Below, one piece after another: positions 2,297 through 38,064 of a stretch of DNA of 64,000 nucleotides; the first letter of the stretch is position 1, and each line of letters starts with the position of its first letter. Source of the DNA: a virus. The stretch lies in UHGV virus genome UHGV-0179428. One strand, given 5' to 3'. The notes beneath the pieces were generated by a model. The model did not search any database, was not told the origin of the DNA, and worked only from the letters and a program-made list of their open reading frames with translations. Both the position numbers and the translations under genes were made by a program.

Positions 2297-2396
2297 TTTG
2301 TTTCTCCAGTTGGATTTATACATTTCCGTATTCCGTAAGACGAAATGACGGCGCGGACAGCTAATACTCCTTTGTTGTGTGCCCTAATGATAATAT

Positions 2397-2957
2397 CTAT
2401 TTAAAAGAGTTTGGAATTAATGACTCTGCTTCTCGATACAACCTATCGGGTAAGTATAACGTGTAGTGTTGCCTCCTCGGTTCAAGTTTTTTGTAAAGCC
2501 ACAAGAAGATTTCTTGTCTTTCCCAGGAATCTAACCACCCATTTGCCATTCCCAGTGGAGGGATAGCAACGCTGGTATCCAGCTCCTCAACACAATCTGC
2601 TAATGCGGTAATGCCCGCAGTAACATAAGAAACCTGGGACTTTAAACGCCAATGTGTTTTCGTTGGGAGCAAGATGCACTTTTCATCAGGGTAAACGTAA
2701 ACGCTTCCAATCTTAATTTCGTCTTCACGACACCGCTTACGGTAATCTTGATATAGGTTGGGGTAGCGTTCACGGCACGCCAGCGCAATACCGCGGCCCA
2801 TTGCTCCTACACAGTTAATGGTAACGACTTTATAGTCTTCGGGCGCATTAAAAAGATCGCTACCAATTTCAGATTCTTTACGTACCGTTAACATAACGAA
2901 TCGGCCGCAGTTGATGTGTAGTATTAAAACGTGTACCGCCGATTGATAACTCGACAA
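2397..2957 (-). CDS. putative macro-domain-like (ADP-ribose binding/processing) protein
   Basis: ORF track; VVTINCVGAMGRG and later AIPPLGMANG segments resemble the two glycine-rich loops of macro domains; start uncertain (TTG 2957 or ATG 2894). Confidence 0.35.
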   Translation of the reverse strand: MSSYQSAVHVLILHINCGRFVMLTVRKESEIGSDLFNAPEDYKVVTINCVGAMGRGIALACRERYPNLYQDYRKRCREDEIKIGSVYVYPDEKCILLPTKTHWRLKSQVSYVTAGITALADCVEELDTSVAIPPLGMANGWLDSWERQEIFLWLYKKLEPRRQHYTLYLPDRLYREAESLIPNSFK

Positions 2958-2981
2958 GTATAGCGATATACGTTTTACCCA

Positions 2982-3350
2982 TTAGCGATTTTTTGTAATC
3001 CATTGTTTGACCGCCGTTTCTAAACCTTCGTGTTGTAAGCCCAGGCGTTGCATAGCCAGTGCCAAGTTGAGCGTGTGTACAACCTGTTCACGGAACTGAT
3101 GATCGTTCATGCGGTCCCAGACCTTCTCTACCGAAATATTGTGTTTCCAGAGCAAATAAGCTTCGCGACACGATGCGCGACGAACCAAGCTGGGTTTAAC
3201 AAAAGGCAGCTCGATTTCAGGTAAGTAACCTAAAAGCTTAACTAGCTGTGTTACCTGTGTCTTACCAAAGTCGTCACACTGATAACAAATTTGTAGAATG
3301 TCAAATTCATTCAACGGTATGCCGTAAATTGATGGGTTCTCTGTGAACAT
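2982..3350 (-). CDS. hypothetical protein
   Basis: ORF track; GAGGAG RBS 7 nt upstream of ATG. Confidence 0.65.
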   Translation of the reverse strand: MFTENPSIYGIPLNEFDILQICYQCDDFGKTQVTQLVKLLGYLPEIELPFVKPSLVRRASCREAYLLWKHNISVEKVWDRMNDHQFREQVVHTLNLALAMQRLGLQHEGLETAVKQWITKNR

Positions 3351-3552
3351 TCATATTCTCCTCAGGCTCGAAATGTGTTTCGGGTGGCAACGTTCCTAAA
3401 GCCCCTTGGATACAAGCCGTCAGTGAAGGTTTGCCGAAACATACCTTACCTATTGTCCCCATATTGGGATGCTGTAAGAACGCTTTCGCACGTTCGTATT
3501 CTTTCCAACAAATACTCGTATCCAAACCACCCACTCCGTACGATTTTAACAT
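3307..3552 (-). CDS. hypothetical protein
   Basis: ORF track; AGGAGAGCTAATT-ATG RBS; 44-nt overlap with downstream gene. Confidence 0.6.
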   Translation of the reverse strand: MLKSYGVGGLDTSICWKEYERAKAFLQHPNMGTIGKVCFGKPSLTACIQGALGTLPPETHFEPEENMNVHREPINLRHTVE

Positions 3553-3618
3553 AATTAGCTCTCCTGACGTAAATTTCTCACACTCATAGTGAAGTACGCC
3601 AAGAGAGCTTTATTGTTT

Positions 3619-4062
3619 TTAGAATGTTTTGCTAAAATCGACCCACTCACGATCGTGTGAGTAAACCGCCTGATAGCCGCGTCGGATGAAATACTCTTTT
3701 GCTTCTTTACATTTCGCATACATGCCAGTAACAATCTCGCCGAAAACTTCATCAGCTGCAATTGCTTTGAAAATCTCTTTCATTACACCCCGTTGACGAT
3801 AGTCTGGGAGCACGTATACCGAACGTATCTTAAGTGAACCGTTACGATTCCGATAACTACAGTATCCTACCGCGACATCATCCTGATACACCAGAACTAT
3901 GCAGTTACCTTCGATCAGCTGTCGCGCATTTAACTTCGGCACCGACGTTTTGATTTTCAGTAACGTGGCCTGGTGGTCTAAGTAACGGTAGTGTAGTTTG
4001 AGTAAATCGGCAGCTTGTCGCTCACCGACTTTAGAAGATGCGTTCAACAAATAAATTTCCAT
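3619..4062 (-). CDS. GNAT-family N-acetyltransferase
   Basis: ORF track 3619-4068; ATG at 4062 preceded by TAAGG; motif VYVLPDYRQRGVMKEIF matches the GNAT acetyl-CoA binding motif A. Confidence 0.6.
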   Translation of the reverse strand: MEIYLLNASSKVGERQAADLLKLHYRYLDHQATLLKIKTSVPKLNARQLIEGNCIVLVYQDDVAVGYCSYRNRNGSLKIRSVYVLPDYRQRGVMKEIFKAIAADEVFGEIVTGMYAKCKEAKEYFIRRGYQAVYSHDREWVDFSKTF

Positions 4063-4093
4063 TTGCAAACCTTAGAGACGCAAAAAAGTAAAA

Positions 4094-4222
4094 TTAAAAC
4101 CAACGCGCGATGACGAAAGCCGCAGCGGCTAATATGGCTGTGGTGATTATCAATCCACCCCATGAAAGTTCCGCGTCGTATAGTGCGGATATCGCTACAT
4201 TCGTAGCGTTTATCGTGGTCAT
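4094..4222 (-). CDS. small membrane protein (42 aa), hypothetical
   Basis: Manually translated: ATG at 4222 preceded by CAGGAGCAGAAA; peptide MTTINATNVAISALYDAELSWGGLIITTAILAAAAFVIARWF with C-terminal hydrophobic helix; below ORF-track size cutoff. Confidence 0.35.
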   Translation of the reverse strand: MTTINATNVAISALYDAELSWGGLIITTAILAAAAFVIARWF

Positions 4223-4279
4223 TTTCTGCTCCTGTCAATACCCTCACACCGGAGGGTATCTTCTGGACTATTTGGGTGG

Positions 4280-4378
4280 TTAATCTTCGAATGCCCAACG
4301 GTGACGTTTAATCAGCCAGTTTAAACCTTTACCAATTAACCACAACGAGCCAAGTGTTAACAGAACCCCTACAACCAT
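4280..4378 (-). CDS. small membrane peptide (32 aa), hypothetical
   Basis: Manually translated: ATG at 4378 preceded by AGGAGAGGGG; peptide MVVGVLLTLGSLWLIGKGLNWLIKRHRWAFED. Confidence 0.3.
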   Translation of the reverse strand: MVVGVLLTLGSLWLIGKGLNWLIKRHRWAFED

Positions 4379-4388
4379 ATCCCCTCTC

Positions 4389-4574
4389 CTAATTCCGCCA
4401 TTCGCATTCGCGTTGACGCCAAATTGAACCCCACGATAGTTTAATCAGATAAGATGAAACTACCCATAAAATCATCACCACACAAAACATGACATAAAGA
4501 ACCGCTAGAATGGACATGAAGCCAAACCCTGCCGCATCCACAATACGACGGAACCAATCAGTTTGCATAAACAA
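4389..4574 (-). CDS. small membrane protein, hypothetical
   Basis: ORF track; hydrophobic core; AGGAG RBS; overlaps the end of the upstream ATPase gene. Confidence 0.5.
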   Translation of the reverse strand: MFMQTDWFRRIVDAAGFGFMSILAVLYVMFCVVMILWVVSSYLIKLSWGSIWRQRECEWRN

Positions 4575-7062
4575 TTTTTACTCCTTCGTTATACACCGCA
4601 GGCAATGTCACCCCTTCCGGTTCGATGACACAGTACGATGCTTCATTAAGTTTAGAATGAACCTCGGCTTCGTGGGAGACTACCAACAGTTGAGAAAATT
4701 CTCCCGAGTTTGCTAACGTTTTAATAAAGCCGACCAGGTTGTTACGGTGCTCCTCATCCATACCTTCCGAAGGCTCATCCAAAAGCAATGGAAACTGATG
4801 CAACTTCAGCGCTTTGTACGCGGTCAGCCTGAACATCAGATTAAATATCGCACGCTGCGCCTTAGACCCTTTACGCACGTCAGGAACAGGCTCAGGATGC
4901 GTTTTTAGCTGGACAGGAAAAGTATAATCCAAATCACCGTCAGTGAGATCGCAAGGCATGACGCGCATGGGGTACGTCCAGACCTGTTCGATATAACGCG
5001 TCATTAACTCTGTGATTCTAACGATAGCGTTGTAAAAATACTTTCTAAGCACACCCTTTTCTGGCGAGAAGGCTTGAATCATCAGTTTGTTATTGAACTG
5101 CTGGGCTTGCAAGTCAGCAAGTTCGCGTTCCAAACTGTTGAGCTGATTCAATTCATTTTCCATCTGACGATAACGTTCGCGTGCGGTTGTAAAAGCATCC
5201 AGCTTCCCTTCTCGTGCACGTAAGAGTTCCTCGACGACTGTATTTGTCAACGTAACCTTAACATCACTCTCTAACCGTTCGAATAACGCACTGAAATCAT
5301 CTACAGCACGTTTAACATTCACCAGATAGGTAAGTGTCGTGTTAGCCAGTTCGTGCTCTCTACGACGCATTGAGAGCATCTCTGTGGCTTTACCTAATCG
5401 CGACTGTTGGAAAGCGATTTTCTGTTGTAAAGCACCATCGACGTTACCAACGGCCGCTACGGCATCCTGCCATTCTTTTTCCGCTTTCACTAACCGTTGT
5501 CGGGTTTCATGGTACTCAATAGCAGAGTACAACTCACTGTCAAACGCTGCGCATAGGCTCCCGAACTGCTCGCGTGATTCTGTGAAAACGTTACGTTCTT
5601 GCAAACGCTTAAAGAACATGCTCAATACCGGGTCCTTTGAATACGTCAGTACAATCTCACGAACCTGTCGCATATAAGTTACATCGGATTCTAACTCAAC
5701 ACGATCGCGTAATAGGGCCTCTAACTGCGTTTGTAGTTCCGTGCGCTGCTGTTGTTGTCCGCGAATCGAAGACTCAAGTTCAGGTAAAGAACGTGTAACA
5801 CCAGGCCGAAACTTAAACCGACACTGCGGACAATCCACTTCTGCTGTTTCTAAGTAGTGATTACGCTCATGATTTAAATTCTGTAAAACGTTCTCCACTC
5901 GCTGGAGTCTATCCCGCAACCCTGCGGTTTTTTGATCCATCACCAGAAGCCGTTCTTCCAAAACATTGAGTTTTTCGGTTGAATGAATTGCGTCCAGTGT
6001 TGTTCCTAACCGTTGCCCCCAGACACGCGCATCGGTAGCCGCACGAAGTTGGTCTAAATTGACGTTGTCGTTAAATAGACCCGGAAAGAGATGCTCGGTG
6101 TCCCATTTGGTAAGTAACTCACGTAAACGTGCCAGCGTATTCTTGAGACCTTCGTGATTCCGCATCAGGTAGTCTTGTCGTGTCGACTCATCCATTAATA
6201 ACGACAAGTCTTTATTCAACATCGATACCTCTGTTTCAGTAGAAACAACAGCTTCGCGGGCGGTCGCTTCGTTTTGTCGCGCGACCAGTATCTGTTCATC
6301 AGTAGGCAATCCACCACGATGTTGTAATATTGCGTCGATGGTTGGACCCAAGCTGTTTAATAACGCTTGGATTGTTTCGATGGTGACGGCACGATTTAAT
6401 CCTGGCAACTGTTCGATTTCTCGGTTCAGTTCACGTAAATCCGATTCCAAACCTTTTAATCTCGTCGCTAACTGCTGCCGTTCTTCCTCGTTCTCAATAA
6501 CGCGCGTCCGTAATTCGGCGATCTTACGGCTGGTGATTTCAATACCCCCATTTAAAGCAGTAAGGTTTTTACGCAAACGTTGATAAAACCCTAACGCGTA
6601 AGTGAGGTCAGAGGTACTTAAACGGTAAAACCACTTGCGGCGTAGTTCGGTTCCCGCGTCAGTTAACAACACCTCACCATTTAATAGTTCTTTAATCTCT
6701 TTCGTAATACCCGTGATTTCTTCAACACGGGAGTTGTAGACTTTCGCATTACCTTGCTCGACGATCTTTGTCCCCGTGGTCAAGTTCTCAATATCACAAA
6801 CCAGTGAGTTGCCTTTACGGGCAACTTTGAATCGATAGCGTTGATCGCCAACTAAACAGTAGTTTGTGTAAGAACCTCCGTCCCTGAATTCGGTTTTAGC
6901 CGGTGCTAAGGGTAAGAACACAGACAGTAGACTGGTTTTCCCGCAGCCGTTCCCACCCAGGATAATTGTTGTCGGTGACTGGATAGTGAAATCGAAGGTT
7001 TCAATTTCATGTAACCCCATCCCCGTAAAACCTTTGAGTATAATGCGTTCAACTTTTAGCAT
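4558..7062 (-). CDS. SMC/Rad50/SbcC-like ATPase with coiled coil
   Basis: ORF track 4558-7278; preferred ATG at 7062 after GGAGGTG; N-terminal Walker A GGNGCGKTS, long central coiled-coil region with CPQC, C-terminal Walker B LLLDEP and VVSHE. Confidence 0.7.
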   Translation of the reverse strand: MLKVERIILKGFTGMGLHEIETFDFTIQSPTTIILGGNGCGKTSLLSVFLPLAPAKTEFRDGGSYTNYCLVGDQRYRFKVARKGNSLVCDIENLTTGTKIVEQGNAKVYNSRVEEITGITKEIKELLNGEVLLTDAGTELRRKWFYRLSTSDLTYALGFYQRLRKNLTALNGGIEITSRKIAELRTRVIENEEERQQLATRLKGLESDLRELNREIEQLPGLNRAVTIETIQALLNSLGPTIDAILQHRGGLPTDEQILVARQNEATAREAVVSTETEVSMLNKDLSLLMDESTRQDYLMRNHEGLKNTLARLRELLTKWDTEHLFPGLFNDNVNLDQLRAATDARVWGQRLGTTLDAIHSTEKLNVLEERLLVMDQKTAGLRDRLQRVENVLQNLNHERNHYLETAEVDCPQCRFKFRPGVTRSLPELESSIRGQQQQRTELQTQLEALLRDRVELESDVTYMRQVREIVLTYSKDPVLSMFFKRLQERNVFTESREQFGSLCAAFDSELYSAIEYHETRQRLVKAEKEWQDAVAAVGNVDGALQQKIAFQQSRLGKATEMLSMRRREHELANTTLTYLVNVKRAVDDFSALFERLESDVKVTLTNTVVEELLRAREGKLDAFTTARERYRQMENELNQLNSLERELADLQAQQFNNKLMIQAFSPEKGVLRKYFYNAIVRITELMTRYIEQVWTYPMRVMPCDLTDGDLDYTFPVQLKTHPEPVPDVRKGSKAQRAIFNLMFRLTAYKALKLHQFPLLLDEPSEGMDEEHRNNLVGFIKTLANSGEFSQLLVVSHEAEVHSKLNEASYCVIEPEGVTLPAVYNEGVKIVYAN

Positions 7063-7807: not shown

Positions 7808-8284
7808 TTACAGCCCTAAGTGCGTGAGTGATAAAATAGGTTGTGTTTCACCTTTAATCGTCGCGAAGGAACGATACATTTCTGCGTTACTTGAAAAAAC
7901 TTCGTTAGCAACGATACATTCACCCGTCTCTAAAGAAAGGAGATAAATGTAGTCGCTCCATACGCTTTGTACCAACACCCACTCAAGTGCGGTATCATTT
8001 TCGCGTGTTGTTCGCAGGTGGTGAAAGTAAGGACGGATTGCATCAACTGCCGCATTAAAACGACGGTGATAAATTCGGGTTAAATCAAAGGTCCAGATTG
8101 TTTCCAGGTCGACTGGATGTAGTGTGCGCACCGTTTCGATAATCGTCGACTGATCGTTAAGGCGCGAGGCTTCGGCGATACGTAGCAGTTTCCAGGCCAC
8201 CGTTAAGTTGTGGCGAATTTGTTCAGGTTTAGCCGACAGGTCATGATGAAATTGCGCAGCTTGGTAAACGTTAGATAATTGCAT
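7808..8284 (-). CDS. hypothetical protein
   Basis: ORF track; ACCTAAAGGAGTATTAAA-ATG context. Confidence 0.75.
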   Translation of the reverse strand: MQLSNVYQAAQFHHDLSAKPEQIRHNLTVAWKLLRIAEASRLNDQSTIIETVRTLHPVDLETIWTFDLTRIYHRRFNAAVDAIRPYFHHLRTTRENDTALEWVLVQSVWSDYIYLLSLETGECIVANEVFSSNAEMYRSFATIKGETQPILSLTHLGL

Positions 8285-8311
8285 TTTAATACTCCTTTAG
8301 GTAAACATGTC

Positions 8312-8340
8312 GTAAAAAGGACCCCGGACGTACCGGGGTC
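8312..8340 (-). terminator. rho-independent terminator
   Basis: GACCCCGG-acgta-CCGGGGTC hairpin then T-rich run on minus strand. Confidence 0.6.
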
Positions 8341-8350
8341 AAGACTACAC

Positions 8351-8740
8351 TCAATGATCTAATTCAATAGCACCAGCCATCTTGCCCCGTTCTTCGATAA
8401 CGATCAGATAACGGTCGCGAGATTTGCTTTTAGCGAGAGTTAAGACAACGGTAGGGTCGCACGTTTTCGTGGTGATAGGAAGAACCTCTCTTGCGACGGA
8501 ATCGAGCAGAAAGTAATAACCTGCGGGACACATTGTGCCACCGTCAGCTTTTACCAGAATATAGCGCCCGTCTGCGCCGACTTCTTGGCAGATTGTTTCA
8601 CCGACTTCGCAAACTTCAAACCCCGGAGGATTGTACTGATAATCGGTATTGTTGTTTGGGGTTAGCAGTAAATCGTTAACTTGGGTAGATGCTGCTACAC
8701 TCAGGGAGAAGAAGAATGCTAAAACGCAGACGAGACGCAT
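8351..8740 (-). CDS. secreted/periplasmic protein with signal peptide, hypothetical
   Basis: ORF track; N-terminal MRLVCVLAFFFSLSVAAST; AAGGAG RBS. Confidence 0.7.
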   Translation of the reverse strand: MRLVCVLAFFFSLSVAASTQVNDLLLTPNNNTDYQYNPPGFEVCEVGETICQEVGADGRYILVKADGGTMCPAGYYFLLDSVAREVLPITTKTCDPTVVLTLAKSKSRDRYLIVIEERGKMAGAIELDH

Positions 8741-8750
8741 GAGTTACTCC

Positions 8751-9161
8751 TTAAATTTTAAGTTTATCCATAGCTACAACGATAGGTTTTTCCGAAGTGT
8801 CTAATATCCCTACCATTGGCACACCATCTACGACTTCGAAGAATGGTTTGTTATTACCAGAGCACAGACGTTTGTCGTTGTATTCGAGACGCTGGGCCTT
8901 CCACGTTTCGAGGTTGAGTACGGACATTGGGCTGTCGTAGCACCAGGCACCACCCTGCTCAACGATGAATACGTATCTGCTACCTTTGTATTTAAACAGA
9001 CTCTTTGCCTGACAGTACAAGCCGTCGATTTCCGTACAATAGAAATCATCGGTGCTATTGACGTACTTAATATTGTCTGGCAACTGTATTGTTTTTGCTG
9101 TAGTGTTGACAGAGAATAGAACAGCCATTGCAATGAGGAGAGTATTAATGATAGTTTTCAT
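8751..9161 (-). CDS. secreted protein with signal peptide, hypothetical
   Basis: ORF track; N-terminal MKTIINTLLIAMAVLFSVNTTA; TAAGGA RBS. Confidence 0.7.
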   Translation of the reverse strand: MKTIINTLLIAMAVLFSVNTTAKTIQLPDNIKYVNSTDDFYCTEIDGLYCQAKSLFKYKGSRYVFIVEQGGAWCYDSPMSVLNLETWKAQRLEYNDKRLCSGNNKPFFEVVDGVPMVGILDTSEKPIVVAMDKLKI

Positions 9162-31920: not shown

Positions 31921-31960
31921 CGCCACGAGACAAGGACGTCTCGGATTAAGGAGAGTGGCC

Positions 31961-33160
31961 ATGGCCTCCATTGTATACCAATACCCTTTAGATTTAACGG
32001 GAAGCCTAACCTCTAACGCCGTGGAGCGTCAGGTTACGTTAGGTACAGGTAAAGTTAACCGTGCGTTTGCTTTTCCTGATGGACCGTTTTATGCCGATAC
32101 GTTCCGCTTGCGGGTTGCCAACCGACCCGATGCGACGTATGAGCGCGGAACGGACTATGAGTTGATTTTTGCACATCCGGCTTACGAGAAATTGACGAAG
32201 AACCGGGAAGTGGTAATGGCGGTTGTTGTAACGAACACCGCCATTCCGACCGATATCACGGTATCGGCGCAAGTAGTCGGGGGTCCGCAGTCTGCAAACG
32301 TGACTGCGATAGAACAGGCGATTGCTGAGTTGAATCTCGATAATCGAACTGTCGGCTTTAAAGACTTGCGAAATGTTCCTGATACATTTCCGTCAGCACC
32401 AACGTATAAAGACGTCGGTGATATTTACGGTTTCGAATATATCATTACAGTGCTCGCTGGCATTAAAGATGCGATAACGGCGGGCGATGCTGTACAGCTT
32501 GAGAACATCAAAGCGATTCTCGAAAGCCTGAAAAACGATTTCCTGGACGCGCTGAACGCACACATTAACGCCACGGGTAACGTCCACCATCTGGATATTC
32601 ACCAGGTTAACGGGTTAACAGAAACGGAGATCCGTGCACTTATCCGTGATGTACAGTCTGCCATCGATGCAACCATTACCGATATTAATGCGTTGAAGAA
32701 AGCAGATGAAGCGTTAGGAAAACGTATTGATGCTGTTGTCAAATCTTTGGAAGCGTGGAACGACCAACTTAACATCGTTGCACAAAACTACCAGAAAATG
32801 GCATTGGCATTGGCGAACCTAAATTCGTTAGTGTTACAGTTACAGAAAAATATCAACGATCTGAACACCAAACTCAACCAAGCGATTCAGCGCATTGCTG
32901 CGTTAGAACAGCGGGGTAATGAGTCCGATCAGAAAATTGATAATCTGCAACAAAACCTGGATGCGCTTAAACAACAGGTTGCGAATAACACGAACGCAAT
33001 CAGTCAGGCGAATCAGAACCTACAAAACCATATTGCGGCAGATAACCCACACACGGGCTATCTCCACAAGAAATACGGTGGTGTGGTTCAGGCTCCAGTG
33101 CACGTTAACGCTAACTTGACGTCCCGTGATGACGTTCAGGCAGAAGCGGGTACGAAATAA
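31961..33160 (+). CDS. fibre-like protein 4 with coiled coil (399 aa)
   Basis: ORF track 31955-33160; ATG at 31961 after AAGGAGAG; N-terminal GPFYADTF...GTDYEL module; heptad-like Q/N/L-rich region. Confidence 0.7.
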   Translation: MASIVYQYPLDLTGSLTSNAVERQVTLGTGKVNRAFAFPDGPFYADTFRLRVANRPDATYERGTDYELIFAHPAYEKLTKNREVVMAVVVTNTAIPTDITVSAQVVGGPQSANVTAIEQAIAELNLDNRTVGFKDLRNVPDTFPSAPTYKDVGDIYGFEYIITVLAGIKDAITAGDAVQLENIKAILESLKNDFLDALNAHINATGNVHHLDIHQVNGLTETEIRALIRDVQSAIDATITDINALKKADEALGKRIDAVVKSLEAWNDQLNIVAQNYQKMALALANLNSLVLQLQKNINDLNTKLNQAIQRIAALEQRGNESDQKIDNLQQNLDALKQQVANNTNAISQANQNLQNHIAADNPHTGYLHKKYGGVVQAPVHVNANLTSRDDVQAEAGTK

Positions 33161-33227
33161 CTTTATTACAGGAGGAACTATGCTTATGGGCGTAGTCCTC
33201 CATTCTTTTTTATTTTAAGGATACGTG

Positions 33228-33623
33228 ATGGCGATCAGTGTTAAAAATGTACGTGACCGAATCACCAACGTAGAGAACCAAATGGCAACTGGCCCACGTG
33301 TTGATCCGCAAGTTGCGTCGAAAGCACATAATGCCGCCGACACTTTTTCGGGTTGGACGCCAAGTCGGTTAGACTGCGGGGGGAGTTGCAGCTGGACGTG
33401 CTCAAACGGTTGTACGCATGGCTGTACGAGTTGTTCGGGCACCTGTACGTCAGTGTGTGTAGGTAGCTGCTCCTCTGCGTGCGGTAACCAGTGTACTGGA
33501 TGTAGTTCAACGTGTTCCGGTGGCTGCTCAGGTTGCAGTGGGACCTGTGGGGGTGCTTGCTCGGGCCGTTGTTCTACGGGTTGTTCTGGTGCTTGCTCTG
33601 GTGGCTGTTCTGGCCCAACCTAA
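33228..33623 (+). CDS. Cys-rich (C-x3-C)n protein 1, candidate rSAM substrate / precursor
   Basis: ORF track 33225-33623; ATG at 33228 after AAGGA; about 60-aa N-terminal region then about 70 aa of C-x3-C repeats with S/G/T spacers starting at LDCGGSCSWTCS. Confidence 0.75.
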   Translation: MAISVKNVRDRITNVENQMATGPRVDPQVASKAHNAADTFSGWTPSRLDCGGSCSWTCSNGCTHGCTSCSGTCTSVCVGSCSSACGNQCTGCSSTCSGGCSGCSGTCGGACSGRCSTGCSGACSGGCSGPT

Positions 33624-34030
33624 GAGGTGAAAAATGGCAATTGGATTACCTGCGCTACAAGCGCGGCTAAATAACATTGACAACACTGCATTGAAGAATA
33701 CGGGTGCAGTACAAAACTATATTCGTGGGAAAGCGACGAACAACGCAGACTTATTCGGTGGGCAAGCTCGCAACCACTATGACTGTGGTGGGAGCTGTAG
33801 CTGGACCTGTTCGAGCTGTTCTGGTGGTTGTACAGGGAACGCATCAGGCGGCTGTGGTTCTTCCTGTTCTGCAAACTGTGTATCAGGTTGTAGTGCAGGC
33901 TGTAGTGGATGTTCGAATACCTGTTCTGGTGGCTGTTCAGGAAGCTGTACGGGGAGTTGTTCTAACTCGTGTGTAGGAAACTGTTCTGCAGGCTGCTCAG
34001 GTAGTTGTTCTGGTGGGTGTTCTGGGAGGT
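33390..34030 (+). repeat. low-complexity TGY/AGC/GGN codon repeats encoding (C-x3-C)n
   Basis: Visible periodic Cys codons every fourth codon across two adjacent genes. Confidence 0.7.
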
Positions 34031-34032
34031 AA
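33634..34032 (+). CDS. Cys-rich (C-x3-C)n protein 2, candidate rSAM substrate / precursor
   Basis: ORF track; AAGAGGTGAAAA-ATG; same architecture, core begins YDCGGSCSWTCSS. Confidence 0.75.
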   Translation: MAIGLPALQARLNNIDNTALKNTGAVQNYIRGKATNNADLFGGQARNHYDCGGSCSWTCSSCSGGCTGNASGGCGSSCSANCVSGCSAGCSGCSNTCSGGCSGSCTGSCSNSCVGNCSAGCSGSCSGGCSGR

Positions 34033-34034
34033 TT

Positions 34035-34241
34035 GTGATTAGCCTTAAGAACCTTCGTGATCGGTTAGTAACAGCGGAAGGGTATATTACGACCGCTAAC
34101 GCAAACAACTATATTGCAAACCAGGGCACTGTGTCTTCAACCAATAACCTTGCCGGTTTACCTTTAAGCCATTATAACTGTAACGGTGGATGTAGCTGGT
34201 CGTGCAGTGGTAGCTGTAGTAAAGGTGCGGGGGGAAGGTAA
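34035..34241 (+). CDS. Cys-rich protein 3 (short paralog), candidate rSAM substrate
   Basis: ORF track 34005-34241; GTG at 34035 after GGGAGG; VISLKNLRDR N-terminus parallels protein 1; core YNCNGGCSWSCSGSCS. Confidence 0.6.
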   Translation: MISLKNLRDRLVTAEGYITTANANNYIANQGTVSSTNNLAGLPLSHYNCNGGCSWSCSGSCSKGAGGR

Positions 34242-34390
34242 CTAAGCCCTCCAGTGGTAGTATGTCTATTACGCAATAACCGAGTTAATTGTACGGGTTT
34301 ACTACTGAGTTTCAAGTCACCGGTAGGCAATGGCGCGGTGGTTTCTATACCCTGAATGTCCGTTTGACCGTGAAATAATTGGAGCAATCA

Positions 34391-35278
34391 ATGAAGAATG
34401 ATTTACATTTAGCGTACAAAACAATTTTCAATCATCCACTTCACATTTCTTCCCCTGATTCCGTACGTGCACACTTAGCAGATGAAGTTCGTCTGCTGAC
34501 TCAGTTGCCGGGCGAATGGCCTAAAGTGCGCGGACGTTTCTTTACCGATCGTAAAAACTATCGTGTAGAAAATACGTTTAAGATTCGTGATCTGACGGCA
34601 GAAAGTGTAGTGGTCTTTACCGGTGACTCCGAGTTGCGTGGTAAACTGGTTGCGGGTAAATATTTCTTTAGTGACGGGATTTTGAATAACTCCGTAGATA
34701 TGGAATTGTTCTTTACCCCATTTGAAGAAATGGGCGCAAAACCGGTTGCCCGTCGTTGGTGGTCACCGGATTACTTAGGCTCGTTCCCGTATTTCTTTAC
34801 CCTGGTAACACCAGAAACGAAGAACTATTTCGATACGGAATCGTATATCGAAATTGAAGGGTACGAAGCGTTAGGGATTAATTGCTTAGCGGATTTAATG
34901 GCGTATAGCTATAAGTTCGTGTGGGATCGTGAACGTTCCGTGTGGGTTGCCCTGACGGATGAACACGAAATCACAAAACGCATCCGTAAGCCTTGGATGC
35001 AGCATTTGATTCAAACGCGTATTGGCGAGCATCCGTCAACAGAAGCGGATCTGGCAAAACTCGTTAGTTTCTTAATGACGAAAGTCACGTTAACTGACGA
35101 AGAGAAAGCAGCAGTGTCGGCGGTGTTGGACCGTAACGTAACGTTAGCGGATTTAGAACGTTTAAATGTCCGTTATAAAGACCTTAACCGTGTTTTGGAA
35201 GCGTATAACTCTCCATTTTTGTTAACCCCTGGTGCTAACGTAGACGACGATCCTTTGTTCGCCATTGATTATATTTAA
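34391..35278 (+). CDS. hypothetical protein in rSAM cluster
   Basis: ORF track 34379-35278; ATG at 34391 after GGAG. Confidence 0.7.
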   Translation: MKNDLHLAYKTIFNHPLHISSPDSVRAHLADEVRLLTQLPGEWPKVRGRFFTDRKNYRVENTFKIRDLTAESVVVFTGDSELRGKLVAGKYFFSDGILNNSVDMELFFTPFEEMGAKPVARRWWSPDYLGSFPYFFTLVTPETKNYFDTESYIEIEGYEALGINCLADLMAYSYKFVWDRERSVWVALTDEHEITKRIRKPWMQHLIQTRIGEHPSTEADLAKLVSFLMTKVTLTDEEKAAVSAVLDRNVTLADLERLNVRYKDLNRVLEAYNSPFLLTPGANVDDDPLFAIDYI

Positions 35279-35299: not shown

Positions 35300-36223
35300 A
35301 TGACAACCAATGCAGAACCAAGGTTATCGAATCGTTTATACGATAAACCCACCGTATTGTCCGTAGTCGCTACGTCCAAGTGTAACCTGGATTGTAGCTT
35401 CTGCGGTGGAGCCTATTACATGAATCGTGAAGATTCTCCGCGAGAGTTTCAACGTGAGCGAATTTTGGAAGCGCTGGAAGCTAATCCAACCATTACCGAA
35501 ATTCAGTGGACGGGTGGTGAGCCATTACTGGCAACCCGTAAAATTGAGGCGTTTGTTGACGAATTAAAAGTGATTCGTCCAGAACTCAAACACCAGTTGT
35601 ATACCAATGGCTTAAAGATGCGTAAATCGCATCTCCCGTTGCTAAAACAGTTTGACAATGTCTACGTTAGCATCGATGGGTTTAAGTCGTCTGAGCGCCC
35701 GTTTATGCGCTTTATTGACGAAGGCTGTTACGAAGCACTGGAAACGATCTACGAGCTGGATAATGTCCAGACTTGGGGTGTCCTGACACGGGACCGTTTA
35801 GGGGACAAACGCTGGCACGAAGATATTATTCAGCTGCACAGCGCGATTTACCATTACGGTTTCCGTGCAATGACGTTACTCTTAGATGCGAAAATGCCAA
35901 AACCTTTATCGCCTGACCACGTCATGAACTTTATTTACGGCTACTATCAGGTTCAGGACAACATTGAACGGCTGAATGTAGTAAATAGTCGTGAATGCGG
36001 CTTTACGGTAAGTAAAGTGTTTGAAGAAGGGTGTAACGTTTGCAGCGAAAGTCTTTGGATTAATGCAGACGGTGGTGAGCACCAACTCCAGAATGCACCT
36101 AACGTTCTGGAATCGGGATGTAACCAACTGGCCTTCTCTATCGGTGTAGAGGCGTACGAATATATTCGTCGTGTGGTGATGGCAGGGCGTAATAGAGGGG
36201 CGGCAAATGAGTCAAGTAAATGA
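35300..36223 (+). CDS. radical SAM enzyme 1
   Basis: ORF track; CNLDCSFC (C-x3-C-x2-C) near N-terminus, GGEPLL SAM-binding motif, additional C-terminal Cys cluster. Confidence 0.8.
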   Translation: MTTNAEPRLSNRLYDKPTVLSVVATSKCNLDCSFCGGAYYMNREDSPREFQRERILEALEANPTITEIQWTGGEPLLATRKIEAFVDELKVIRPELKHQLYTNGLKMRKSHLPLLKQFDNVYVSIDGFKSSERPFMRFIDEGCYEALETIYELDNVQTWGVLTRDRLGDKRWHEDIIQLHSAIYHYGFRAMTLLLDAKMPKPLSPDHVMNFIYGYYQVQDNIERLNVVNSRECGFTVSKVFEEGCNVCSESLWINADGGEHQLQNAPNVLESGCNQLAFSIGVEAYEYIRRVVMAGRNRGAANESSK

Positions 36224-37529
36224 ATTCCCTAAGCAGTTAACGTATCAGATCGTAACCAACCTTTCGTGTAACCTGGACTGCGAATATTGTTACGAACGTA
36301 AGTACCCGCGTAACAACAAAGCGGCTGACATTGTTGATTTCTTACACGCCTGTTTTGAACGTGATAAAAACGAACCGAATGTTGAAGTTATTATCGACAT
36401 TATCGGTGGTGAACCGTTCATGCAGCCTAAACTGCTGTTGGCTGCGTTTGAAACCGCTGAGCAGTTGTGTAAAGAACACAACCGACCGTTTATGTTTAGT
36501 ATCTCCACGAACGGAACGCTGTTAGATCGTCCGTTGAACCGTGAGATTGTAGAACGTTGGAAAGATAAACTTTCGGTTGGGGTTTCGATTGATGGCTTAC
36601 CTGAATCCCATGACCGTTATCGTATCTTCACAACAACACGCCAGGGTTCTTACGAAGCCGCAGTACGTGGCTATAACTACTTAAAAGAGGTTGGCATTGC
36701 AGAGCTCGGCGTAAAAGCAACCTTTACGTTAGAAACGCTGCCGTTCTATGCTGCGGGGATGAAGTCATTAATTGACATTACTGGCGGTGGGACAATTTCT
36801 GGAAACGTAACTTTCGAAGACGTTATGCCACGTAGCATGGCGACGTCAATCGCTTTACAGATGATGGATGTGATAGATTACTGGGTTGAGAAAGGATTAC
36901 ACACCAACCCACGTAATATCCTATCGCATATCATTCCAGAAGGGTTGGATTTCGACACGATTTGGGAACCGAACTGGCGTGACCAGTTACTGTATAATGA
37001 CACCGTACGGTTGAACCCGGAACGCTTACGTCCGTTCTGTGGGACGTTAACGCACATGACGTGCTTAGGGTTTGACCGTAAGATCTTTGGCTGTAACCGC
37101 TTTATGTCAACGGTAACGTCGCGTTCTGCGGTGTTTGAGTTGGTAGGTCGGGAATTCGTCAGTCTGGACAACGGTAAATTGTTAGAAGAGATTCAAACGC
37201 AATATACCAACTACCCAGAGACCTGTTTAGGTTGTCCGATGAAACACGCTTGTGGTAGCTGCGCAGCGGCTTCTTACGAGAACGGGGAAGGAACGTTAGA
37301 AGACCGTAAAGCGTATCACGCTGAACGACGTCAGTGTGGCTGGACGACAGCGAAACTGATGGTGGCGGAATACTGGAAACAGAAGATGGGTACGACGTCA
37401 GCAAAAGCGTTCCACGACACGAGTATGTGTTATTGCCCACGCTGTGTTCGTGAACGTGCCCAAAAGGAAAAATTATTAAGAGAAGCCAAAGATGAAACCA
37501 ATTCTGATCAACAATATTACGAAGCGTAG
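36207..37529 (+). CDS. radical SAM enzyme 2 with SPASM-like C-terminal Cys-rich domain
   Basis: ORF track; CNLDCEYC, GGEPF, C-terminal CLGCPMKHACGSC plus further Cys including CYCPRC; 17-nt overlap with upstream rSAM gene. Confidence 0.8.
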   Translation: MSQVNEFPKQLTYQIVTNLSCNLDCEYCYERKYPRNNKAADIVDFLHACFERDKNEPNVEVIIDIIGGEPFMQPKLLLAAFETAEQLCKEHNRPFMFSISTNGTLLDRPLNREIVERWKDKLSVGVSIDGLPESHDRYRIFTTTRQGSYEAAVRGYNYLKEVGIAELGVKATFTLETLPFYAAGMKSLIDITGGGTISGNVTFEDVMPRSMATSIALQMMDVIDYWVEKGLHTNPRNILSHIIPEGLDFDTIWEPNWRDQLLYNDTVRLNPERLRPFCGTLTHMTCLGFDRKIFGCNRFMSTVTSRSAVFELVGREFVSLDNGKLLEEIQTQYTNYPETCLGCPMKHACGSCAAASYENGEGTLEDRKAYHAERRQCGWTTAKLMVAEYWKQKMGTTSAKAFHDTSMCYCPRCVRERAQKEKLLREAKDETNSDQQYYEA

Positions 37530-38064
37530 AATTCGACTTCTGGATAAGTTTCTGGAAAACAGTAAGCTATTTGGTTGTTATGTGGTGATTAACGGTGAAG
37601 ATTTTACCGATGACGTAAAACGCTTGCTGATTCGTCACGGTGTGACTGTAATCATCCCAATGTACTGCACCGAACTTACTGACCTGTCGGTCGCGGAAAT
37701 TGAAAAACGTAACCCAGGGTTTGAAGAACGGGTATTGGATTTCCCACGTCACAAAATTGCGTTTCTACGCCGCTCTTTAAGCGAACCCAGCGCAGAATCT
37801 ATCACTGTGTTGGCATTGTCCTTCCCCGGCATTACTATCTTCGCAACACGTAACCCGAACTCACCGATTGATGGGTTTTACGATGAGCGGGAGAAATTTA
37901 ATACCGTGATTTTTCCTGAGCTAACGCCAGAAGAATGCCAGGGTATCCGTATCGATTGGGAATCGGACTTCGACACAAGATTCCGTCATATCGATTTTGA
38001 ACTGTTAATCGAATTAGGGTTGATTAAAGGAGACGATGAATGTCTGCTACTGGTGAAGGCTTAA
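37492..38064 (+). CDS. hypothetical protein in rSAM cluster
   Basis: ORF track; overlaps 3' end of rSAM 2. Confidence 0.6.
   Translation: MKPILINNITKRRIRLLDKFLENSKLFGCYVVINGEDFTDDVKRLLIRHGVTVIIPMYCTELTDLSVAEIEKRNPGFEERVLDFPRHKIAFLRRSLSEPSAESITVLALSFPGITIFATRNPNSPIDGFYDEREKFNTVIFPELTPEECQGIRIDWESDFDTRFRHIDFELLIELGLIKGDDECLLLVKA

Follow-up and report, generated by a model that had tools for sequence, protein, structure and literature searches.

What does a protein do whose gene lies between genes for cysteine-rich repeat proteins and genes for radical-SAM enzymes? The window analyzed here, the whole 64,000-nucleotide stretch of virus genome UHGV-0179428, raises this question with a 295-amino-acid (aa) open reading frame (ORF), termed X, that has two Cys-rich genes upstream and two radical-SAM genes downstream (Table 1). 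Radical-SAM peptide maturases usually find their substrates via a RiPP recognition element (RRE) domain, and stand-alone recognition elements or peptide chaperones are known in PqqD with PqqE and MftB with MftC. The original prediction placed X in a RiPP-type system, as a recognition element, protease, or scaffold without a recognizable motif, and suggested that the two ORFs past the enzymes may belong to the same system.

Table 1. Features of the X locus, in window coordinates
Feature	Coordinates	Strand	Basis
401-aa coiled-coil fiber-like virion protein, SPN3US gp167 homologue	31955..33160	+	PHROG 2163 virion structural protein, E 8e-103
Cys-rich protein A (CysA), 131 aa, 21 Cys	33228..33623	+	PHROG 6085, E 1.6e-40; weak TIGR04114 match
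Cys-rich protein B (CysB), 132 aa, 20 Cys	33634..34032	+	TIGR04114, 20.4 bits vs cutoff 20; PHROG 6085
Truncated third Cys-rich paralogue, 68 aa	34035..34241	+	Direct reading, translation
GGAG ribosome-binding site, 6 nt 5' of the X ATG	34381..34384	+	Direct reading
X, 295 aa, pI 5.4, 1 Cys	34391..35278	+	ORF reading, homologues, model
Radical-SAM protein 1 (rSAM1), 307 aa, CNLDCSFC at 28-35	35300..36223	+	Pfam PF04055, E 6e-14; PHROG 1802
Radical-SAM/SPASM protein 2 (rSAM2), 440 aa	36207..37529	+	NCBIfam PapB and TIGR04115, both below cutoff
190-aa ORF	37492..38064	+	PHROG 7988 (unknown); overlaps rSAM2 end
223-aa DUF4376 protein	38040..38711	+	Pfam PF14301, E 5e-11; weak PHROG 8169/1807/2837 tail-fiber/tail matches
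Bidirectional intrinsic-terminator-like hairpin, end of + strand gene string	38734..38764	.	Terminator scan

X is a real gene under strong purifying selection, as its ribosome-binding site, conserved start, and low dN/dS (about 0.08) indicate, and it occupies the predicted position. The frame runs from an ATG at 34391 to a TAA stop ending at 35278. A longer TTG start at 34379 appears in the mechanical ORF list; all of the 30 aligned homologues (30/30) begin at the MKN/MKS methionine that corresponds to the ATG. Compared with relatives of 99% and 73% identity, X had dN/dS values of 0.078 and 0.076, respectively; synonymous sites were near saturation against relatives with 57 to 75% protein identity, so that the ratio of about 0.08 applies where it was measurable. 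A noncoding spacer of about 150 nt separates X from the truncated third Cys-rich copy, and RNA structure predicted for this spacer (34235-34395) was no better than that of shuffled sequence (z 0.35).

The DNA around X comes from an SPN3US-like jumbo phage (genus Seoulvirus), with about 72 to 74% DNA identity over X and both radical-SAM genes. X is a homologue of SPN3US gp165 (SPN3US_0165/YP_009153459.1, annotated as hypothetical) and is 75% identical to the SPN3US copy (L004); the region shares 99% protein-level identity with a 225-kb IMG/VR contig (L003). Gene order is common to the window, SPN3US, and Erwinia phage pEa_SNUABM_29. Very long fiber or baseplate-periphery proteins are encoded 5' of the cassette, including a 1,728-aa protein homologous to the tail protein gp168, itself a relative of phiKZ gp131 (PMC5105663), and the 401-aa gp167-like gene lies directly 5' of the cassette, with its synteny kept in 17 loci. 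Between the end of this 401-aa fiber gene and the first Cys-rich gene, a GGAGGA...TCCTCC hairpin followed by a T-run can be seen by eye (33171-33215); the terminator scan did not call it. At the other end, three paralogous minus-strand ORFs of 176 to 180 aa (38791-39321, 39390-39920, and 39986-40528) converge on the cassette; ELDGFT forms the C terminus of the first two, and ELEGFT lies close to that of the third. SPN3US has one copy of this paralogue (gp160), detected with high spectral counts and coverage in the virion mass spectrometry, and the Erwinia relative has three.

The Cys-rich proteins share a common plan. CysA begins with a region of about 50 aa bearing a fiber-like NAxD...G...W motif, continues with CGGSCSWTCS, and ends in a run of cysteines spaced mostly at every fourth residue; CysB carries the motif NNADLFGGQARNHYDCGGSCSWTCS followed by CXXX repeats. 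The truncated paralogue retains a leader-like N terminus and CNGGCSWSCSGSCS before its stop codon, and is possibly a duplicate in decay. The CXXX proteins upstream of X in other lineages are tail fibers by PHROG assignment (E down to 2e-40), and the C termini of these fibers match PHROG 6085, the family of the Cys-rich proteins in the window. The upstream protein of contig L021, for example, has a C-terminal every-fourth-residue Cys run (...GCKSGCSGSCISSCSANCSSGCSGSCSYDCGGSCGSSCSG). A segment preceding the repeats is recognizable only in loci with an ...NADxLxGxxxxxYxCxxxCSWTC motif, and the bodies of the substrates are otherwise unrelated.

Annotation of the Cys-rich genes in the reference phage departs from this reading. 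In SPN3US NC_027402 (L001), both real CXXX-repeat ORFs (7950-8342 and 8353-8757) are missing, and the annotated gp166/ACQ60_gp100 (8426-8761) is an out-of-frame ORF over the second of them. Two Seoulvirus-like contigs carry an extra rSAM1-like gene of 303 aa between both Cys-rich genes (L007, 6392-7303; L008, 6393-7304) and no extra X.

The two enzymes downstream of X resemble maturases of repeated cysteine motifs. The rSAM1 gene starts 21 nt past X. For rSAM2, the best NCBIfam matches were the PapB ranthipeptide maturase (E 1.2e-33) and TIGR04115, the "radical SAM peptide maturase, CXXX-repeat target family" (E 6.5e-33), both below curated cutoffs, with 114.7 bits on TIGR04115 against a curated cutoff of 350. 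Identity of rSAM2 across clades was 31 to 35%. In contigs L021 (8579-10639, 686 aa) and L025 (6551-8569, 672 aa), single ORFs fuse an rSAM1-like half to an rSAM2-like half, a sequence arrangement which indicates that the two radical-SAM proteins of the window act together. In both enzymes the radical-SAM motif begins at residue 20 to 28 or thereabouts, leaving no N-terminal recognition domain, which makes it plausible that recognition or scaffolding falls to a separate partner.

In a scripted census, all of the loci with both flanks (26/26) had a CXXX-run ORF directly upstream and a radical-SAM ORF directly downstream of X. These were 18 Seoulvirus-like loci, the window included, and eight loci on unrelated contigs (L020, L021, L022, L024, L025, L030, L031, and L032), the whole census spanning 33 to 61% GC and about 30 kb to 284 kb. 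Distant loci were drawn from viral, genome, and metagenome collections, with the genome and metagenome scans contributing only six loci; locus scans with P0059 returned no match. The distance from the X stop to the radical-SAM start ranged from -83 to +22 nt across the 26 loci, and the genes often overlapped. The upstream partner was either a small Cys-rich protein or a tail fiber with a CXXX-repeat C terminus, and the downstream partner was a single radical-SAM/SPASM gene (about 385 aa), a fused double gene (672 to 686 aa), or a split pair as in the window.

Gene spacing differed between lineages. The order 401-aa fiber, CysA, CysB, X, rSAM1, rSAM2, ORF of about 190 aa, and DUF4376 ORF was found in 17/17 Seoulvirus-like loci, where 230 to 360 nt lie between the Cys-rich genes and X, a looser coupling than that of X to the radical-SAM gene. 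On seven of the unrelated contigs (L020, L021, L022, L024, L025, L030, and L032), the X homologue starts 7 to 53 nt past the tail-fiber gene. With both neighbors present in 26/26 loci, X is a fixed third component of a CXXX fiber/X/radical-SAM cassette. The predicted membership of X in a RiPP-type Cys-rich/radical-SAM system is thus borne out, the family occurring only in this context. The RiPP framing itself calls for correction, as the CXXX repeats of other lineages are the C termini of tail fibers; from its gene content, the cassette looks like one for maturation of a virion fiber protein rather than for production of a secreted peptide.

Enzymes related to rSAM2 are not confined to loci with X. 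When viral contigs were scanned with aligned relatives of rSAM2, at least 303 IMG/VR loci were recovered, which suggests that phage contigs commonly carry the CXXX-repeat system. Among the best 80 of these loci, X was present in 9, in which the radical-SAM protein was at least 33% identical to rSAM2 of the window; most of the other 71 had radical-SAM proteins of 24 to 28% identity, likewise with CXXX-run proteins nearby. In 63 of the best 80, X was replaced by a helical gene product of about 95 to 115 aa whose gene overlaps the radical-SAM start (within L043-L112; for example, L049 4658-4960 and L072 4574-4903), and across the best 80 loci this accessory and X were mutually exclusive. The smaller accessory had no NCBIfam or PHROG match, and homology to X was rejected by hhalign (probability below 1% against three X alignments). 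With 496 bits, the L072 enzyme belongs to TIGR04115 proper, and one of the substrates in related loci passes TIGR04114. By these comparisons, the substrate-accessory-radical-SAM grammar is general, with X as one of two apparently unrelated occupants of the accessory slot.

Contig L088 has a 791-aa TIGR04115-like radical-SAM ORF (2362-4737) with about 390 extra residues inside its CxxxCxxC motif. The ends of the insert, CNLNCSY[C-LVAGTKVL ... SIAVHN]-CYE, resemble those of an intein that needs splicing to restore the Fe-S motif. We had considered this long ORF as an accessory-enzyme fusion and rejected that reading given the intein-type appearance of the extra sequence.

The suggestion that the two ORFs past the enzymes belong to the same system held within one lineage. 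Both lie in the same overlapping gene string as the enzymes, closed by the terminator, and both were kept in 17/17 Seoulvirus-like loci, so that within the Seoulvirus lineage they can be counted with the cassette. A tblastn search found no counterpart of either in any other cassette-bearing lineage. Judged from this distribution, the two ORFs are lineage-specific additions and not part of the conserved core.

Profile searches gave X a family without a function. X matched PHROG 8030 (function unknown) over its full length (E 3.1e-141; residues 1 to 293 against profile positions 1 to 293 of 295), and this was the sole profile match, Pfam and NCBIfam scans giving none at E <= 0.1, in line with the predicted lack of a recognizable motif. 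Homologues formed 48 clusters at 90% identity, and in 1.84 billion proteins the family had 44 representatives at the 50% identity level. An exhaustive profile search added distant relatives of 230 to 290 aa that matched X in its C-terminal half only; ten of them, scanned with Pfam, NCBIfam, and PHROG, yielded nothing informative. Searching the X profile against PDB sequences produced only noise at E > 1.

Structure prediction was also used to look for a fold shared with known proteins. The AlphaFold2 model of X (mean pLDDT 88.2, pTM 0.84), predicted from a shallow alignment of 30 sequences, is compact and globular with a curved beta-sheet. Its N-terminal part is beta-rich alpha/beta, with strands between residues 57 and 187, and is followed by long helices (191-211, 216-229, 236-246, and 252-272) and a lower-confidence tail. 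Foldseek found no match in PDB at E <= 0.001 and, among the viral predicted structures of BFVD, only the orthologue of Erwinia phage Asesino (A0A1B2IAE6, TM 0.94), a true family member annotated as hypothetical. The RRE-like winged-helix, peptidase, or chaperone fold that had been suggested for X therefore did not appear in the predicted model, which had no PDB or BFVD fold match outside its own family. A role as an RRE or PqqD was rejected on the lack of any PqqD or RRE profile match in Pfam and NCBIfam and of a winged-helix fold match, and a role as leader peptidase on the lack of a matching peptidase family and of conserved Ser, His, or Cys. As far as a predicted model can show, X is not an RRE, not a recognizable peptidase, and not a known chaperone fold.

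Conservation within the family divides X into two domains. A lineage-specific N-terminal alpha/beta domain (about residues 1 to 160) is followed by a family-wide C-terminal helical domain (about 164 to 280) and a terminal DDPLF (286 to 290). In hhalign comparisons of close and distant X families, only residues 164 to 295 aligned, D-P-L-F included (probability 97.9%). BLAST detected the C-terminal domain in every clade (22 to 35% identity, E 1e-7 to 1e-21) and the N-terminal domain in no other clade. Among 55 family members, P16, D168, K200, G212, A219, D220, F227, L228, K231, L234, E238, L255, and R261 were kept in at least 80%, and no Ser, His, or Cys reached that level. Since the conserved half pairs with a conserved enzyme and the variable half with variable substrates, we infer from this sequence pattern an adaptor-like role.

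Evidence on whether these proteins are packaged comes from the SPN3US virion proteome (PMC5694885, supplementary tables), which lists 86 proteins, among them gp160 and gp167-171. Proteins gp161-166 are absent from this mass spectrometry list (PMC5694885). Homologues of X (gp165), both radical-SAM proteins, and both downstream ORFs were thus undetected in SPN3US particles, which is weak negative evidence and is consistent with X, the enzymes, and the downstream ORFs being assembly or maturation factors. Clear homology of the kind that would have counted against the original prediction, to an unrelated structural or assembly protein, was not found for X. That gp166 is missing from the list says nothing, because the annotated gp166 is out of frame and the real Cys-rich ORFs are unannotated; with those ORFs missing from the annotation, the SPN3US proteomics could not have detected the Cys-rich proteins.

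Based on these analyses, we lean tentatively, with a little less than even confidence, toward X being a non-catalytic adaptor or chaperone that links the fiber substrate to the maturase. X would be a cytoplasmic, nonvirion, probably non-catalytic accessory subunit of a tail-fiber maturation cassette, the other parts being a CXXX-tailed substrate and one or two ranthipeptide/CXXX-repeat-type radical-SAM/SPASM enzymes. The substrate would be the stand-alone proteins encoded at 33228-34032 in this phage and the tail-fiber C terminus elsewhere. Because the X gene overlaps the first radical-SAM gene or is coupled to it, X and the enzymes would be produced jointly. The N-terminal domain of X may hold the Cys-rich substrate while this is still unmodified and prone to aggregate and oxidize, or may hold the fiber segment that directly precedes it, while the C-terminal helical domain and terminal DPLF peptide may dock on the conserved maturase. 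The CXXX run would thereby be presented for radical-mediated cross-linking, after which X would be released and remain unpackaged. By analogy with the best-matching enzyme families, the modification is probably the formation of thioether cross-links. We infer these binding partners, the lack of catalysis, and the modification chemistry from gene content, conservation, and family resemblance.

An alternative, which we regard as rather doubtful, is that X assists tail-fiber assembly as a chaperone, much as T4 gp38/gp57A or lambda Tfa do, helping the Cys-rich fiber tip to fold, trimerize, or attach to the fiber without contacting the radical-SAM enzymes. A gene 7 to 53 nt past a tail-fiber gene, as in seven non-Seoulvirus loci, is in the classic chaperone position, X is acidic (pI 5.4), gp165 is absent from SPN3US virions, and a lineage-specific N-terminal domain fits fiber-specific recognition. 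Synteny by itself does not separate an enzyme partner from a fiber chaperone. However, X has neither sequence similarity (Pfam and PHROG) nor fold similarity (BFVD and PDB) to known tail-fiber chaperones, and in the census loci the family was never beside a fiber without a radical-SAM gene. Moreover, the part of X with the highest conservation goes with the conserved enzyme and not with the variable fibers, X is coupled more tightly to the radical-SAM gene than to the substrate genes in Seoulvirus loci, and contig L022 has a separate ORF (6224-6922), with a Tfa-like N terminus by eye, just before its CXXX fiber. An enzyme partner is favored over a fiber chaperone because of the exclusive radical-SAM association and the conservation pattern.

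X might also act on the substrate itself, as a third pathway enzyme: as a protease, it would trim the Cys-rich proteins in their N-terminal region; as a transferase or lyase, it would complete the modification. A protease often holds such a position in RiPP clusters, and the compact globular model with its curved beta-sheet would suit an enzyme. An active site might in principle be built from the residues conserved family-wide, D168, K200, D220, E238, and R261; still, the lack of any conserved Ser, His, or Cys leaves X without a catalytic signature, and we consider catalysis by X unlikely. That X is a minor structural protein joining the Cys-rich proteins to the gp167-type fiber would agree with its location inside the fiber/baseplate gene block, yet gp165 is missing from the 86-protein SPN3US virion list, in which its neighbors gp160 and gp167-171 are abundant, the X gene overlaps enzyme genes, and no similarity to structural proteins was found in BFVD or PDB. 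A structural role is accordingly highly improbable.

An adaptor role for X can be set beside several known systems. Like PqqD and MftB, X is a separate and presumably non-catalytic protein, encoded between substrate and enzyme genes beside a radical-SAM/SPASM maturase without a substrate-binding domain. Unlike them, X is three times larger, has two domains, and has no RRE profile or winged-helix match, and the cassette substrates are virion fiber or fiber-like proteins and not short secreted peptides. X would thus be a functional counterpart of leader-binding partners such as PqqD for PqqE, with an unrelated, unmatched fold. PapB is described as acting on repeated Cys-X3-Asp motifs. The comparison with PapB and freyrasin concerns the enzyme and not X: rSAM2 shares the radical-SAM/SPASM architecture but falls below the family cutoff, and the Cys-X3-Cys repeats of the cassette lack an acidic acceptor.

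Closer in substrate is the system of the TIGR04115 maturase and its TIGR04114 and TIGR04117 Cys-Xaa-Xaa-Xaa repeat targets, whose resemblance lies in substrates with Cys at every fourth residue and in a maturase that best matches TIGR04115 and PapB; L072, a true member of the TIGR04115 system, lies in a phage contig with the same gene grammar. The window departs from this system in the low score of rSAM2 (115 versus 350 bits), in its second radical-SAM partner, and in having X in place of the accessory of about 100 aa in canonical loci, to which X has no detectable homology. With the tail-fiber chaperones (T4 gp38/gp57A and lambda/Mu Tfa), X has in common a gene directly past the fiber gene in several lineages, an SPN3US product (gp165) that is unpackaged, and a lineage-specific N-terminal part, whereas it differs in its lack of sequence or structure similarity and in its obligate radical-SAM linkage. 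CXXX-repeat radical-SAM maturation is already known in the form of curated NCBIfam models; what X adds is a new fold-orphan accessory family in a divergent, tail-fiber-linked branch. The literature searched describes neither gp165 nor this cassette, nor any phage tail fiber modified by radical-SAM enzymes; a "cysteine-rich" match concerning phage Pam3 was discarded, as it involves disulfides only.

In sum, the phage maturase branch described here has no RRE and is invariably paired with X, and in a sister branch another small protein fills this slot. Should X be the recognition or chaperone subunit, radical-SAM enzymes would be seen to receive protein-sized substrates by a new route, and X would provide a handle for reconstituting the system. 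It is possible, though we hold this with some reserve, that X founds a new class of folds whose members present substrates to radical-SAM enzymes acting on whole virion proteins, and that diverse phages, from 30-kb contigs to 240-kb jumbo phages, cross-link a rod with Cys at every fourth residue at the fiber end. Such modification, if true, would be RiPP-style enzymatic chemistry on a phage structural protein, for which the searched literature held no description. In SPN3US, a model jumbo phage, the Cys-rich genes concerned are unannotated or misframed in the reference annotation. Collectively, these results suggest that the ends of phage tail fibers may be enzymatically cross-linked, which bears on fiber stability, host recognition, and the engineering of receptor-binding proteins.
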